From: Alphaproteobacteria bacterium
GTDB lineage: Bacteria; Pseudomonadota; Alphaproteobacteria; Rs-D84
Direction: 5' to 3'
NCBI GenBank assembly: GCA_017616785.1
Contig: JAFZXK010000005.1
Location: forward strand, 7,906 to 71,905
Length of the DNA: 64,000 bases
Shown: piece after piece, positions 40,096-50,778 of the stretch
How the letters are laid out: every line of letters begins with the position of its first letter
Numbering within the stretch: position 1 is the first letter of the stretch
Notes under the pieces: model-generated
Databases searched by the model: none
The model's input: the letters and a program-made list of their open reading frames with translations, nothing else
Told to the model about the DNA's origin: nothing
Position numbers and translations under genes: made by a program

Positions 40096-41358
40096 ATGGT
40101 CAAAATGCAAGAAAAAAATAACATTAGAACATTATCTTTTGGGTGTCGCCTTAACGCGATGGAATGCGAAAAGATAAAAGATATGTTGGCACCGCACAAA
40201 ATACATGCGGTTATTGTGAATACTTGCGCCGTAACCGCAGAGGCCGAACGCCAATGCGGCCAGGCGGTGCGCAAAATTGCACGCGAAAATCCGGGTGCCA
40301 CGATTTTTGTTACTGGATGCGCCGCGACACGAAACCCAAAACTGTTTGAAAAAATTCCGGGCGCGATTGTTATACCAAATGAAAAAAAGATGGTTTTGGA
40401 CGCCTATTTGGACCAAATACAGCAAAAAAATCGCGGCAATACGCAACTGGAAACAGTTGGTAAATTTGATACAGAAAGCAAACTTTCAAAACAATTTATT
40501 CAAATTCAAAATGGATGCAATCACGATTGCACTTATTGCGTAACGCGTCTTTTGCGGGGGCCGGCGGTGTCGTTTGAATATGATGAAATTTTGAAAAATG
40601 TCCGCGCGGCGACCGAAAATGGTTTTGGCGAAGTCGTCCTTACGGGTGTTGACGCGGCGTCTTATGTTCGGGTTTATGATGGGCGACCGTTTTTGATTTC
40701 CGATTTGTGTCGGCAACTGTTAGATGATGTACCGGACTTGCGGCGGTTGCGCCTTTCGTCCGTTGATCCGGCGGTGCCGGCGATACGCGATATTATTGAA
40801 ATAATGAAGCAAAATGACCGATTTATGCCACACCTGCATCTTTCTATGCAGTCGGGTTCTGACACAATTTTGCACGCGATGCGACGGCGGCATACGGCGG
40901 ACATGGTGCGCGAATTGGTAAAATTGGCGGACGGCAAAGTTAGTTTCAGTTGGGATATAATTTGTGGTTTTCCGGGGGAAACGGACGAATTGTTTAATGA
41001 AACATTGGAATTGGCCCGCGAATTGGGACCAATTCGGATTCATGCCTTTCCTTTTTCACCGCGTCCCGGAACGGTTGCGGCGGAAATGCCAAACCAGGTT
41101 CCATGCAATATCGCACGGGCGCGCGTGCGGCAAATAACAAATGTTGCGAATGAAAACCTGCGTAAATTCATGCTATCCCGGGTTGGCAATGTGTCACGAG
41201 TTTTGGTTGAATCAAATAATATTGCACGAACACCGGACGACATACCGGTTAAAATAGTCGGCGTCCCTATTCCGCCCCGCACAATTTGCGATGTTAAAAT
41301 CACCGGCATTGATGATGCGACCCCAATGTTCTATGCCGATGTGATAATAGGACACTAG
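40096..41358 (+). CDS. mtaB: MiaB/MtaB-family radical SAM methylthiotransferase
   Basis: FGCRLN, NTCAVTAEAE, CNHDCTYC, GFPGET. Confidence 0.88.
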   Translation: MVKMQEKNNIRTLSFGCRLNAMECEKIKDMLAPHKIHAVIVNTCAVTAEAERQCGQAVRKIARENPGATIFVTGCAATRNPKLFEKIPGAIVIPNEKKMVLDAYLDQIQQKNRGNTQLETVGKFDTESKLSKQFIQIQNGCNHDCTYCVTRLLRGPAVSFEYDEILKNVRAATENGFGEVVLTGVDAASYVRVYDGRPFLISDLCRQLLDDVPDLRRLRLSSVDPAVPAIRDIIEIMKQNDRFMPHLHLSMQSGSDTILHAMRRRHTADMVRELVKLADGKVSFSWDIICGFPGETDELFNETLELARELGPIRIHAFPFSPRPGTVAAEMPNQVPCNIARARVRQITNVANENLRKFMLSRVGNVSRVLVESNNIARTPDDIPVKIVGVPIPPRTICDVKITGIDDATPMFYADVIIGH

Positions 41359-42722
41359 TTATTCAAATTCCAAAGCCAACAATATTCCGGGTCATTTTCA
41401 TGACCGGATTCATACCCCGCACAGGTCATTTTGTTTTGCTTGGTTTCCAATGCGGTTATATTCGGAATCGCCGAACCGTTTTCCAGCGCGCCGGTGGTTG
41501 AATCATAACTTGCGGCACTTGCCACCGCAATACCCGAACCCAAAGCACCAGTTGAATCATAGTTCGCAAGTGTGTTTGCCGTGCCGGTCGGTGCCGAATT
41601 TTGTATTTCCGTATGTAACGCACTATACACATCCTTTAACAATTCCAACGATACCAACGCGGATTTAACCTGTGCCTCGGTAAGGCCTTGACTGGTTGCA
41701 AACATGGCGGATGCCGTTGTGCCGTCAACATAGTTCATAACCCGCTGTGCACCAGATTTTGCGGTTAATGCCAAATCTTTACCAGCGGTCGTATAAACCC
41801 ATGACGGGTTTCCGGCGGCATTCAACACAACCGCCTGATTCCCCTTTGGCGCGGCATCCCCGGTGGATTTTTCCGATAAGTTACTTTGTTTGGCATTCAA
41901 CGCCTCCGCCACGGCACGAACGGTTGGAACAGAATTTTCGGTATTGTAATAACTACCAGTAAATAAACTCAAATCTCCTTCAAGTTCAAGCATAGTTGCG
42001 TAATCCAAAATACCAATTTGATTACCCTCTAATGTTTGTGTGGTTGAATCATATACAACCAAACTCGGAACATACAGGTCATTTTCAGTGCCGTCGCCAT
42101 CATAAAACAAAACATTTCCACTGGTGATTTTTGGTTGCCAATAGTTATCGAGTTCATAGAAAACAGCACTAGCCGTTGGTATAGATGTATCATCTCCGGT
42201 TTCTTCAAGCGTCAACCCTTGATCATATAAAAAACCCGATGTTACAATTTGCATTTTACCAATTTCACCATCCGTGTCCCCATCAGTAAGGACACTGTAA
42301 TAATCGTCCTCGGTTGCCGGAATTTCGTCTTGCTTGGTATCGACGTATGCTTTGGATGCGACGGTTTTTTGTGCGGCGGGGTCCGGGTCGGTTGCGAATG
42401 CCGGGATAGTGATAATCAGCGACAAAAGAACAAGCACCTTTGTCATGGCGGGCTTGGTCCGCCATAGGGTTGTTTTTATTGTCATTCCGGGCTTGGTCCG
42501 GAACCCTATTGCGGCTCGGGGGCCGCAATGACAAAAAGATTGGTGTTCGTTGCGTAATCCCCGCGTATCGGTTTGTAATTCCCCTTCTTTCCAAGAAGGG
42601 GTGCGGCATAGCATGCCGCGGGGTAGTTTATTTACCCATACCCCCCGGCGGTTCCGCCGGACCCCTTTCCCCAGGAAAGGGGAATTCATTTGACGATTGA
42701 AAAATTTGAAAAGTGTTGTCAT
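41355..42722 (-). CDS. Exported fibrous protein with SKxYVD/KQ neck-like repeats; palindromic elements in the N-terminal coding region
   Basis: SD aagaggg before the ATG at 42722; signal h-region VLVLLSLIITIPAFA; TVASKAYVDTKQ. Confidence 0.75.
   Translation of the reverse strand: MTTLFKFFNRQMNSPFLGKGVRRNRRGVWVNKLPRGMLCRTPSWKEGELQTDTRGLRNEHQSFCHCGPRAAIGFRTKPGMTIKTTLWRTKPAMTKVLVLLSLIITIPAFATDPDPAAQKTVASKAYVDTKQDEIPATEDDYYSVLTDGDTDGEIGKMQIVTSGFLYDQGLTLEETGDDTSIPTASAVFYELDNYWQPKITSGNVLFYDGDGTENDLYVPSLVVYDSTTQTLEGNQIGILDYATMLELEGDLSLFTGSYYNTENSVPTVRAVAEALNAKQSNLSEKSTGDAAPKGNQAVVLNAAGNPSWVYTTAGKDLALTAKSGAQRVMNYVDGTTASAMFATSQGLTEAQVKSALVSLELLKDVYSALHTEIQNSAPTGTANTLANYDSTGALGSGIAVASAASYDSTTGALENGSAIPNITALETKQNKMTCAGYESGHENDPEYCWLWNLNN
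42441..42686. repeat. Cluster of REP/RPE-like palindromic elements (42441-42465, 42480-42533, 42577-42686)
   Basis: tgtcatt...aatgaca and aattcccct...aggggaatt terminal inverted repeats with internal hairpins. Confidence 0.8.
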
Positions 42723-42750
42723 TGTGTTCCCTCTTTTTTGTTTGTTGTGT

Positions 42751-42957
42751 AAAAAAACCGTCAAATAGGACGGTCGGGGTGTTGAGAAATCATATAAGAC
42801 GATGACCCCCATGGACTTTATATATACTCCATGGGCACCCCGACAACCGGGGTATCAAGATTTCGGCACAAAACATCGGAAATTTTGCGGATTACGACAT
42901 AATGTGCCGGTCTTATATGGGCTTCTCAGGGCCCCGAACCAGATTCCCGTCTGATTC
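42751..42957 (-). ncRNA. Structured leader RNA, copy A (c4/ash-like attenuator candidate)
   Basis: P0 gaatcaga/tctggttc; P1 cgggg-tgagaa-catataagac / gtcttatatg-ttctca-ccccg; three inner hairpins; terminator accgtc/gacggt+T6; promoter TTGCCC-18-TAGCAT at 42964-42993. Confidence 0.7.
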
Positions 42958-43056
42958 AGGACTATGCTATCACGAATCGTTATTTTAGGGCAAGTGTTTT
43001 TTTAATGGGTTTTCTTTGCTATATGAAAACGCTCTGTTTCCCGTCATAATTTGTTT

Positions 43057-43467
43057 ATGAGCCGCGTAAATGTGATTCCAGTATCCGAACTTTCAGACCA
43101 GCATTTAATTGCCGAATATCATGAATTGCCACGCGTGATTAAACAAAAAATAGATATTTCGAACGCGCCGCGGTGCTTTGTTTTGGGTGCGGGTCATATG
43201 CGGTGGGCGCGCAAGCACTGGAAATTTACCTGTGACCGGTTTTGTGAAATCTGTGCCGAAATGGAATATCGCGGATTCAGGGTGAACTTTGCCCCGGAAA
43301 GTTTGCGTGAATATTTGGGCGCGTGTCCGACGGGCGGCGAATATGTTGTAACGGATGCCGACATAGAAAAAAACCGCGAACGAATTCGCGAAAAGTATAA
43401 CAAAAAACCGGAATTTTATCGTTGGACCCGACGGGAAAAACCCGGATGGCTGGGGAAGAGTGGGTAG
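43057..43467 (+). CDS. Pyrimidine-dimer DNA glycosylase (T4 endonuclease V / DenV family)
   Basis: MSRVNVIPVSELSDQHLIAEYHELPRV matches the T4 DenV N-terminus pattern; FVLGAGHM; RGF. Confidence 0.88.
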   Translation: MSRVNVIPVSELSDQHLIAEYHELPRVIKQKIDISNAPRCFVLGAGHMRWARKHWKFTCDRFCEICAEMEYRGFRVNFAPESLREYLGACPTGGEYVVTDADIEKNRERIREKYNKKPEFYRWTRREKPGWLGKSG

Positions 43468-43553
43468 TGTTAGTGATTAGTGTTAGTGGGGTGTAAAAAG
43501 AAGAGATATAAAACAACTGGCGCATTCGCGCCAGTTTCACTAACCACTTACAC
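43459..43553. repeat. GTTAGTG short repeats in inverted arrangement around a hairpin
   Basis: gtagtgttagtgattagtgttagtg ... aactggcgc-attc-gcgccagtt ... cactaaccacttacact. Confidence 0.6.
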
Positions 43554-44008
43554 TATCCTTTCATCAACCTTGCACGGGATTTTTCCCATTCGCGGCGCTT
43601 TATCGTTTCACGCTTGTCCGCACGGTTTTTACCATGGCCGATACCAAGCAAGACCTTTAACCGCCCACGATTATTAAAATACATTTTCAGCGGATAAATT
43701 GTTGCACCACGGTCATTCAATTTACCAATCATGCGATTTATTTGCGCCCTGTGCAGCAACAATCGACGCGGTCGGCGTTCATCAAAGTTCGTAATGCGCG
43801 CCGCCGTGGGTAATTTCTGAATTTCCACACCCGCAAGGTATAAATTCGTCCCGCGCCGCTGTACAAACCCGTCCACAATTGTGACCAGGCCATAACGCAG
43901 CGATTTAACTTCGGCCCCCGTTAATTCAATACCCGCCTCTATCGTGTCTTCGGTAACATAACAGAACCGCGCTTTGCGGTTTTCAGAAACAGCACCAAAT
44001 TTTATCAT
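43553..44008 (-). CDS. smpB: SsrA-binding protein
   Basis: ENRKARF, EAGIELTGAEVKSLR, RRLLLHR, DKRETIKRREW. Confidence 0.95.
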   Translation of the reverse strand: MIKFGAVSENRKARFCYVTEDTIEAGIELTGAEVKSLRYGLVTIVDGFVQRRGTNLYLAGVEIQKLPTAARITNFDERRPRRLLLHRAQINRMIGKLNDRGATIYPLKMYFNNRGRLKVLLGIGHGKNRADKRETIKRREWEKSRARLMKG

Positions 44009-44689: not shown

Positions 44690-44860
44690 GGGTATAGAGG
44701 TTTCTGTATCTTGGGCGTGACAACCCATCGGATGTGTCGGCGACGACATAAAAAATCCCAACATAGGTTGGGTGTCTGTGAATATATTGAATAAACAGAG
44801 CAATTCATCCGATTGTTGTCAACCCCCAACCGCTAACTTTATTCGGCGGTTGATTTAGTT
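44690..44860 (+). ncRNA. Structured leader RNA, copy B
   Basis: P0 ggtataga/tctgtatc; P1 ttggg-tgacaac-atcggatg / catccgat-gttgtca-cccaa; three inner hairpins; aaccgc/gcggtt hairpin; promoter TTGCAA-17-CACAAT from 44655. Confidence 0.7.
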
Positions 44861-44885
44861 TAACAAACAACAAAAAGGATAAAAA

Positions 44886-45254
44886 ATGACACTACAAGAA
44901 TTGGCGACAAATTTCGTTAATAAATATGAAGAAGAAATAAAGCGACAATTGGGTATAAAAACATTTGATAAAAAGGTCGCAATAGAATGTGTTGCGGACT
45001 TTTTTGAACGCGAAACCGCAGCATTGATTAATAACGCCATCAATAGAGATGCTTTTTCATCCAAGAATGGTATGATTAAGGATATTATTGGTTCCATGTA
45101 TGAGCAACTAGTGCCGGCACACATTCGTAAATTACATGAGGCCACCGCAAAAATAGAAGGACAAAACTTGGGCAAGGTCTTGACACAGATAGTAAAAACT
45201 GCCACAAAAGCAGCCATAGAAAACGCCGATAATACCATAGTTGTTGGAAGGTAA
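44886..45254 (+). CDS. Hypothetical protein, paralog of 44120..44548 (ends VGR)
   Basis: SD aaagga; shared N-terminal pattern and LVPxxIR. Confidence 0.8.
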   Translation: MTLQELATNFVNKYEEEIKRQLGIKTFDKKVAIECVADFFERETAALINNAINRDAFSSKNGMIKDIIGSMYEQLVPAHIRKLHEATAKIEGQNLGKVLTQIVKTATKAAIENADNTIVVGR

Positions 45255-50378: not shown

Positions 50379-50595
50379 AAATCAAAATACCGCCAAGAAA
50401 CATGACGGTCGGGCATTTTCAAGGTCATACTCTGAATGACTCTGTGGTATTTGGTAAACCTGTTGTATCCCCACAGATGCCCGACCCACAGGTCAGGCAA
50501 ACGGTGCAAAGCGCTAATGTAATAAAATTCATTGTCAATGCGTTTGCACCGCAGAGTAGAGTCCTTGAAAGACCCAAACCAAACTTCCTTGGTTC
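50379..50595 (-). ncRNA. Structured leader RNA, copy C
   Basis: P0 gaaccaa/ttggttt; P1 ttggg-tttcaagg-tactctg / cagagta-ccttgaaa-cccga; three inner hairpins; accgtca/tggcggt hairpin; promoter TTGACC-18-TAGCAT at 50602-50631. Confidence 0.7.
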
Positions 50596-50778
50596 GCAAT
50601 CATGCTAACAAAAATCATCAAGCTAGGTCAAGTGCTTTTTTAAATCTGTATTTCTAAGGAAATCCCGGCTTCCTGACATTTTGAACACTCTTTTATAAAT
50701 TGTGTCCACACAATTTTAATTTGATTTTTGTCGCGCGTGGGGATAAAATGTTTCGGTGCGAAATCAAAGGGGGTCGGC

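Follow-up and report, generated by a model that had tools for sequence, protein, structure and literature searches.

A leader RNA, here called copy A, lies on the minus strand of a 64,000-nucleotide (nt) stretch of DNA, the window, which was taken from a genome of an Alphaproteobacteria bacterium of the order Rs-D84 (assembly GCA_017616785.1, contig JAFZXK010000005.1, positions 7,906 to 71,905). The leader is a real structured RNA of about 210 nt, and it is probably a two-state, cis-acting switch in the 5' untranslated region (UTR) of an mRNA for an exported protein. Three short segments are central to it. Segment Y can pair either with X, which precedes it, or with X', which follows it, and the base of an intrinsic terminator is part of X' (Table 1). 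Computational analysis of the homologues shows that both sets of helices are conserved and that the terminator is coupled to X'; from this we infer that switching really occurs and governs read-through. Copy A belongs to a group of thousands of related leaders in gut and other Alphaproteobacteria.

The original prediction, made from the letters of the window, had pointed out a 9-nt complement between Y and the base of the terminator, as well as a direct repeat of the latter segment in the other strand of the hairpin that contains Y, and had proposed that the two pairings form a transcriptional switch. The observations on which it was built are correct. The core of X', CACCCCGAC at 42781-42773 (minus strand, as for all positions in copy A), is a perfect Watson-Crick complement of Y (42844-42836). 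The repeated ACCCCG belongs to the core of X, ACCCCGG at 42853-42847. The first bases of the terminator stem are 3-4 nt of X' (GAC or GACC), and a terminator scan confirmed a GC-rich hairpin followed at once by a U-run at 42775-42751 (minus strand 42775..42756, seven pairs of which four are G-C, a 6-nt loop and the tail TTTTTACACA). The stem of this terminator is short.

Conserved fold and competing helices

The 214-nt leader stretch has a minimum free energy (MFE) of -88.4 kcal/mol (z -6.9), and none of 200 shuffles was as good. RNAalifold, applied to eight paralogues of the same genome, gave 59 pairs, 23 of them with compensatory changes. When the model structure was laid over 67 homologues, 92.1% of the cells were paired, as against 42-47% with slid partners; both sides had changed at 40 of the 46 pairs, and there were 526 compensatory cells compared with 156 +/- 11 in shuffles. 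The fold is retained in 16 representatives of other alphaproteobacterial families, with 92.6% of the cells paired and 32 of the 46 pairs covarying.

The fold begins with a 5' hairpin, which is always present in the other families with a differing sequence (read by eye). Next comes a long closing helix made up of two parts, S2 (UGAGAAG:UUUCUCA) and P1c (AUAUAAGAC:GUCUUAUAU). The closing helix surrounds a junction of the P3 hairpin, the X:Y hairpin and the P5 hairpin, and the terminator adjoins it. A short helix, S1 (GGNC:GNCC), flanks S2a, the 5' strand of S2; 94.7% of its cells are paired and all four of its pairs show changes on both sides. S2 is 97.6% paired with six of seven pairs covarying (for example, columns 47:403 are CG in 29 sequences, GC in 20, AU in 12 and UA in 6), the covariation of P1c is strong (75:381 is UA in 29, AU in 15, CG in 12 and GC in 8), and the P3 helix is 96.8% paired with six of six pairs covarying. 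In several loci of other alphaproteobacterial families (L202-L205, L208 and L214) the loop of P3 (e.g. UUGUGCA) is complementary to the segment directly 5' of X (AAAGCAC), which points to an additional pseudoknot, absent from the copies of Enterousia.

Two helical elements were originally read differently. The helix named 'P1', GGUUCGGGG paired with CCCCGACC, joins a 5' G-run to X'. S1 and this GGGG:CCCC pairing compete for the same G's, and the three 3' G's covary with the GNCC downstream, that is with S1, and not with X'. What remains of 'P1' is confined to a few 5' columns: 36:415 (AU four times) among the 67 homologues, and 30:377 (CG6, UA6) and 36:373 (GC13, AU3) in the 16-family set. The 'ttctca box', which the switch was thought to expose, proves to be the variable 3' strand of the covarying helix with UGAGAAG (42928-42922), and no conserved box.

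The competition for Y is seen in the same alignments. Among the 67 homologues X:Y is 87.1% paired, and seven of its nine pairs covary, including 267:302 (GC28, AU17) and 268:301. Standard pairs fill 91.2% of the Y:X' cells, as against 38-64% when the partner is slid; the covarying pairs are 306:410, 307:408 and 308:406, and X:Y has no equivalent of the latter two. In the 16-family set 97.7% of the Y:X' cells are paired, compared with 39-57% for slid partners, 272:377 (UA8, CG3) and 278:371 (AU8, UA2) covary, and positions 272 and 271 of Y covary with X and with X' alike. At least eight of the ten Y:X' pairs can form in 52 of the 67 sequences, and at least seven of the nine X:Y pairs in 50. Y:X' is the longer of the two helices and contains fewer G-U pairs per sequence (0.84 vs 1.52).

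Single copies illustrate how Y and X' change together. In a second leader copy of the window Y is GGUCGGGCAU, X' is AUGCCCGACC and X is GCCUGACC, so that GGGCAU in the altered Y is matched by AUGCCC in X'. The alignment further contains L038 (Y GUCGGGCGU, X' ACGCCCGAC) and L195 (Y GGCGGGAUA, X' UGUCCCGCC), as well as L187, in which X' tracks Y and X does not. At L216, by reading, the sequence of Y:X' is wholly different, with the relations kept and the terminator arm changed alongside.

The segment that follows X' varies among the relatives. A hairpin begins in the last 8 nt of X' in 36 of the 37 copies from the genus, and in 33 of the 37 a U-run (at least 5 U in 8 nt) completes a terminator that overlaps X'. 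Such a terminator is found in 12 of 30 copies from two sister families, and several others carry a hairpin whose 3' arm is the Shine-Dalgarno (SD) sequence. The start codon lies 39-47 nt 3' of X' in most copies. In the SD window, 45% of 38 leader genes have GGGGA or GGGAG, as do 12% of 660 control open reading frames (ORFs). The CUCCCC of X' is complementary to these G-rich SD sequences, and duplexes of -8 kcal/mol or lower are found in 53% of cases vs 20% in the controls, the control start sites being heuristic. Two traits of a riboswitch are seen in these sequences: a covarying structure in the sense-strand 5' UTR directly upstream of a gene, and what appears to be an exclusive terminator and antiterminator, or SD sequestration, that varies among the members.

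Relation to sRNA-Xcc1

The small RNA (sRNA) sRNA-Xcc1 (RF02221) has been known since 2010, and integrons, phages and genomic islands widely carry it. It was first found in Xanthomonas campestris pv. campestris, where it is reported to be 88 nt long, with mapped ends, one Northern band of about 100 nt (PMC2996969) and a 5' end at which the closing helix begins (PMC2996969, Table 2). In integron cassettes of Xanthomonas it precedes symE (bioRxiv 10.1101/2025.06.18.660453), in APSE phages it precedes an ORF6N gene, and in Xylella its homologues are reported in many copies per genome, with a count of seven (PMC12189769). In the excerpts consulted, no two-state cis mechanism is proposed for sRNA-Xcc1.

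The isolated 3' domain of copy A (74 nt) folds into Y:X' (9 base pairs) and two hairpins, with -33.4 kcal/mol and z -4.5, and the 3' domain of the second window copy folds likewise. The consensus of RF02221 has the same plan. Its 9-base-pair closing helix, GgCcGGggG:CccCCgGcC, corresponds to Y:X', its first hairpin with the AUACAA/GAA internal loop to P5, its second hairpin to the helix e:e' and its U-rich joiner to S2b. Since the domain from Y to X' in isolation folds as the RF02221 consensus, the anti-terminator helix of the original prediction is the closing helix of an sRNA-Xcc1-like fold. The second hairpin and the joiner of copy A read GGUCAU-CGUCUUAU-AUGAUU and then UCUCAA, and the loop of this hairpin is the P1c 3' strand (42800-42792). 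Where the consensus has the AUACAA...GAA loop around an inner hairpin, copy A has GAGUAUAUAUAAAGUC, with no inner hairpin, the second window copy has GGAUACAACAGG...CCAAAUACC, and most paralogues have UAUAAAACAGG-hairpin-CGAAA. The setting differs: the leader's domain makes up the second half of a 5' UTR some 210 nt long, with a terminator at its 3' end, whereas sRNA-Xcc1 is described as a free-standing, trans-acting RNA.

The Rfam model does not reach the leaders of this genome. RF02221, whose gathering threshold is 53 bits, gave no match at E <= 10 in 42000-43600 of the window, none at E <= 1 on four copies from the genome and none at E <= 1e-4 in the genome as a whole, and neither the window copy nor the other copies of the genome belong to the family by its threshold. 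Intermediates in other Alphaproteobacteria bridge the two families. At permissive thresholds, five of the 16 other-family representatives match RF02221 over their 3' halves, with 50.0, 42.7, 33.3, 31.7 and 27.8 bits. The two best of them are also matched by R2, a covariance model built from 54 diverse leader hits (L215, 50.0 bits with RF02221 and 43.3 with R2; L214, 42.7 and 42.9). One copy in genome G263 exceeds the RF02221 cut-off with 53.3 bits, and the sub-threshold RF02221 matches of genome G396, which has eight leader copies, coincide with the 3' halves of R2 matches. RF02221 itself is found over the cut-off in 24 of 151 sampled genomes of the phylum; R2 recognises one of 18 RF02221 loci, with 15.6 bits.

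The 5' domain seems to exist at RF02221 loci too, because in 14 of the 18 the 200 nt upstream include a stretch with strong complementarity to the second hairpin and joiner (z <= -2.4). An element of the form GGGGC-loop-CCCC, which by eye resembles S1/S2a, is found upstream as well. At five RF02221 loci from other classes (L229, L232, L239, L240 and L244) the SD and start region that follows sRNA-Xcc1 repeats the upstream S2a and the P1c 5' strand (P1c_a), with GGAG replacing CCCC, and one strand of the sRNA-Xcc1 domain could there be the partner of both the 5' element and the translation start. The same five loci carry a hairpin and U-run between the 5' element and the sRNA-Xcc1 domain.

On these comparisons of sequence the leader is best described as a distant, longer relative of sRNA-Xcc1 and a putative cis-acting variant of a poorly understood family. 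A wider reading is possible, if doubtful: the whole sRNA-Xcc1 family, catalogued as an 87-nt trans-acting sRNA of mobile elements, might serve for sensing and antitermination (or anti-sequestration) as one domain of a much larger two-state cis leader that has spread through the Pseudomonadota and expanded hugely, to about 10-40 copies per 1-Mb genome, in genome-reduced gut Alphaproteobacteria, forming a riboswitch-like class that gates accessory, surface and defence genes.

Mechanism and rival explanations

In the first of the two proposed states, the 5' half of the leader (the G-run, S2a, the P1c 5' strand, P3 and X) would be paired into the 3' half. The helices X:Y, P1c and S2, together with the short pairing of the G-run to X', would close a four-way junction and leave the GACC end of X' free, so that the terminator hairpin would form and transcription would stop at 42751; in many relatives X' could also mask a G-rich ribosome-binding site with its CUCCCC part. 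In state 2 the 3' half would fold alone into an sRNA-Xcc1-like three-way junction, in which Y:X' closes P5 and the second hairpin. Y:X' would then capture the first 4 nt of the terminator stem, as a result of which RNA polymerase would read through, and in many copies the SD sequence would be freed as well. The default is expected to be OFF because state 1 is the more stable and is formed first, and the gene would be turned ON by an effector acting through stabilisation of the 3' domain or sequestration of the 5' domain. A 'strand-swap', in which the 5' G-run would pair with X in state 2, was rejected: 74.5% of its cells are paired, which is the mean of the shuffles, and 250 of 500 shuffles are as good.

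Several findings weigh against such a switch. In a nested nearest-neighbour model state 1 with the terminator beats the forced Y:X' fold of copy A by 15.2 kcal/mol (-88.2 vs -73.0), and the terminator state is ahead by about 10-15 kcal/mol in most copies. X:Y is, furthermore, transcribed before Y:X' can form. The energy gap means that this is not a balanced thermodynamic switch and that an effector or kinetic control is needed; together with the order of synthesis, it makes spontaneous switching look unlikely, and an effector has to be postulated. The covariation of Y:X' comes from few columns (four of ten pairs), and the alignments consist of related paralogues fitted to a model that was built on the state 1 structure. 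The helices might partly coexist, since Y:X' and the long P1 together would form a sterically conceivable pseudoknot. The helix e:e' against P1c, which would be a second exclusive pair on the judgement that its zero-nucleotide linker is sterically incompatible, is a weak candidate: the e:e' columns are 93.4% paired with only four compensatory cells, and 9 of 500 shuffles are as good. Finally, a C3-type variant dispenses with P5 and e altogether. It is represented by L013, on contig C3 of the same genome, and L044, in a relative; these have a three-way instead of a four-way junction and keep X, Y, X', S1, S2, P1c and the terminator. In short, comparison supports a two-state cis-regulatory leader well, through its exclusive and separately covarying helices and the terminator that overlaps X' in most copies of the genus, and the original interpretation is partly supported.

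Three other explanations of the competing helices have to be weighed. The 9-nt complement is not significant alone, because 91 of 1000 dinucleotide-preserving shuffles of the 208-nt leader (9.1%) contain a perfect inverted repeat of at least 9 nt. The idea that it is a chance inverted repeat in a GC-rich leader is nevertheless effectively refuted by the recurrence of the complement at the same columns, with covariation, in the 67 and the 16 homologues. A leader that is mainly the precursor or equivalent of a trans-acting sRNA is a more serious, though unlikely, alternative. The RNA would be ended at the terminator or cleaved between X and Y, its 3' domain would refold to the sRNA-Xcc1 shape and act elsewhere, and the two structures would be sequential rather than a switch. 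The mapped ends and the band of sRNA-Xcc1, which match the domain from Y to X' (PMC2996969), would suit such a precursor, as would the stability of state 1 with the terminator and the many homologues per genome in Xylella (PMC12189769). Against this, the leaders of the genus, each of which has its own -10-like element, are followed on the same strand by a start codon after 39-47 nt; their platforms vary between terminators and SD-sequestering hairpins, as is typical where control is in cis; complementarity of X' to the downstream SD sequence is commoner than in controls; and in the published cases from Xanthomonas and APSE sRNA-Xcc1 also stands directly upstream of a gene.

It is quite improbable that the leader is a constitutive structured 5' UTR with a leaky terminator, providing insulation, stability or dampening without any switching, in which Y:X' has been retained by descent from an sRNA-Xcc1-like ancestor. 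The large energy gap in favour of one state would be accounted for in this way, and no ligand or partner has emerged, the genome being without GGDEF, RelA/SpoT and DAC. An unused helix would decay, however, yet Y:X' is 91-98% paired across families. Its compensatory changes are not always tracked by X, as in L187, it stays Watson-Crick while X:Y gathers G-U pairs, and the 5' arm of the terminator always overlaps X'.

If the leader is the two-state switch preferred here, one RNA device governs a large proportion of the genes for export, surface and defence in abundant uncultured gut bacteria with tiny genomes, on a scale of about ten copies in this genome and up to 40 in a relative. sRNA-Xcc1 would then have a testable cis-regulatory mechanism, and the effector, once found, would reveal what these symbionts sense.

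Copies, neighbouring genes and known systems

The genome is a draft of 1.06 Mb in 25 contigs (94% complete), in which the window belongs to contig C18. A BLAST search inside the window gave no obvious second copy, and the copies emerged from genome-wide searches and from covariance models. BLAST and motif scans located paralogous leaders on five other contigs, and eight clear copies align well. The covariance model R1, built from the copies of this genome, finds nine strong copies, including the second one of the window (match at 50596-50406), and the overall number is 9-10. A divergent copy on the plus strand of the window is weakly detected (R1 27.1 bits, E 4.8e-6, L017:51-175); by eye, its X, Y, X' and terminator 3' arm have A/U where copy A has G/C.

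R1 has matches in 46 of 61 related genomes, with up to 40 in one, and in 126 of 151 genomes of the order (family f1, 110 of 121; f3, 13 of 19; f2, 2 of 4; f4-f6, 0 of 6), where it gives roughly 880 matches or more. Enterousia is assigned to the same order, and its genomes are reduced, according to PMC12306168. R2 matches 20 of 149 other alphaproteobacterial families sampled (19 of 148 without the unpublished genome G209), and in a phylum-wide sample of 150 genomes it adds five further Alphaproteobacteria and one genome of another class. No similarity to the window copy was found in phage records.

Table 1. Elements of leader copy A and further leader copies in the window
Feature	Positions	Strand	Sequence, partner or basis
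Leader copy A	~42958 to 42751	minus	208 nt
Promoter-like element (putative)	42964..42993	minus	TTGCCC (42993-42988), 18-nt spacer, TG-n-TAGCAT (42972-42964); by reading
5' hairpin	42936..42957	minus	GAAUCAGA-CGGGAA-UCUGGUUC; MFE, RNAalifold on eight paralogues
G5/S1/S2a block	42919..42940	minus	GGUUCGGGG at 42940-42932
Helix S1	42934-42931 with 42922-42919	minus	GGGC with GCCC; covariation
S2a	42928-42922	minus	UGAGAA(G); between the S1 strands; partner S2b, the 'ttctca' strand
P1c 5' strand	42910..42918	minus	AUAUAAGAC; partner 42800-42792; covariation
P3 hairpin	42864..42909	minus	CGGCAC...GUGCCG with inner helix; MFE, RNAalifold, covariation
X	42847..42854	minus	UACCCCGG; 5' strand of the X:Y hairpin (originally called P3); direct repeat of X'
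Y	42836..42844	minus	GUCGGGGUG; alternative partners X or X'; antiterminator strand
P5 hairpin	42808..42835	minus	CCCAUGGA...UCCAUGGG; counterpart of sRNA-Xcc1 hairpin 1; inner hairpin absent
e / P1c 3' strand / e'	42788..42807	minus	GGUCAU (42807-42802) and AUGAUU (42793-42788) can form a hairpin, counterpart of sRNA-Xcc1 hairpin 2 in the isolated 3' domain
S2b	42783..42789	minus	UUUCUCA; 3' strand of helix S2; originally the 'ttctca box'
X'	42772..42781	minus	CACCCCGACC; common to Y:X', the 5' G-run pairing and the terminator stem
Intrinsic terminator	42751..42775	minus	GACCGUC-CUAUUU-GACGGUU and U-run (U5+); terminator scan
Second full leader copy with terminator	50380..50596	minus	Upstream of orphan 199-amino-acid ORF 50344-49745; R1 86.1 bits, R2 105.9 bits
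Short divergent copy with terminator	44705..44865	plus	Upstream of 122-amino-acid ORF 44886-45254

The leader of copy A starts about 6 nt 3' of the promoter-like element. The element matches 8 of 12 consensus positions, too few to be listed by a consensus scan. A -10-like hexamer ends 3-10 nt ahead of the leader start in 47 of 66 homologues, compared with 21 when the searched interval is moved 18 nt upstream. Y lies about 115 nt downstream of this element, the only promoter-like one in copy A. A divergent ORF of 138 amino acids (43051-43467, plus strand) begins about 90 nt upstream of the element, and the intergenic region therefore probably holds two back-to-back promoters.

Downstream of copy A there is, as predicted, an ORF at 41355-42722, but its start is probably wrong. 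A signal peptide (MTKVLVLL...) begins near 42446. Between the terminator and this point (42440-42740, minus strand) there are about 300 nt of short, GC-rich, dispersed palindromic repeats, a region with 76 genome-wide matches to a 581-nt query; the ORF remains open across the repeats, and a paralogue on contig C24 is arranged alike. The label 'fibre' that had been given to the gene found no support, as its protein has no match in Pfam, PHROGs or the sequences of the PDB. Among 49 downstream proteins, a simple heuristic detects a hydrophobic N-terminus in 26 and a lipobox in six. No Pfam family was found for 29 of 36 scanned downstream proteins, so that these genes offer no metabolic hint to a ligand; the remaining matches are to an EcoRI-type methylase (two), Stealth, GT2, superinfection immunity and an outer membrane protein (OMP) beta-barrel.

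In a search of the window with Rfam 15, two tRNAs alone reach the gathering threshold, and there is no relevant match at E <= 10 around the leader. None of the Rfam families, among them c-di-GMP-I/II, yybP-ykoY, SAM and T-box, reaches gathering at the 16 loci of other families. The leader as such is not in Rfam 15, and no published description of it was found, supplementary files lying outside the search; the available excerpts of the Enterousia literature, PMC12306168 among it, make no mention of RNA motifs.

Among known systems, the classical attenuators, whether of the trp type or of the protein-dependent PyrR and TRAP types, use 1:2, 2:3 and 3:4 alternative pairing. The leader resembles them in having an anti-antiterminator (the 5' domain), an antiterminator (Y:X') and a terminator (X' and the 3' arm). 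It differs in having no conserved leader peptide; the AUG-UCG-UAA in P3 of copy A is absent from the other copies. No ANTAR, BglG/SacY RAT, PyrR or TRAP RNA motif was recognised by eye.

The leader differs from riboswitches in that its closing helices are unusually long and stable, its antiterminator is a folded three-way junction and no Rfam riboswitch matches it. The draft genome has no detected GGDEF, RelA_SpoT or DAC domain, which makes self-made cyclic di-GMP (c-di-GMP), (p)ppGpp and cyclic di-AMP (c-di-AMP) unlikely as ligands, although absence from a draft is not proof. Riboswitches with terminator/antiterminator platforms, above all multi-copy classes such as c-di-GMP-I and c-di-GMP-II, which precede genes for surface and secreted proteins, nevertheless share much with the leader: a covarying 5' UTR fold, exclusive helices coupled to an intrinsic terminator, a platform that varies between a terminator and SD sequestration, and many copies per genome before exported or surface genes. 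With its two conserved exclusive folds and variable platforms, the leader is a strong candidate for an orphan riboswitch.

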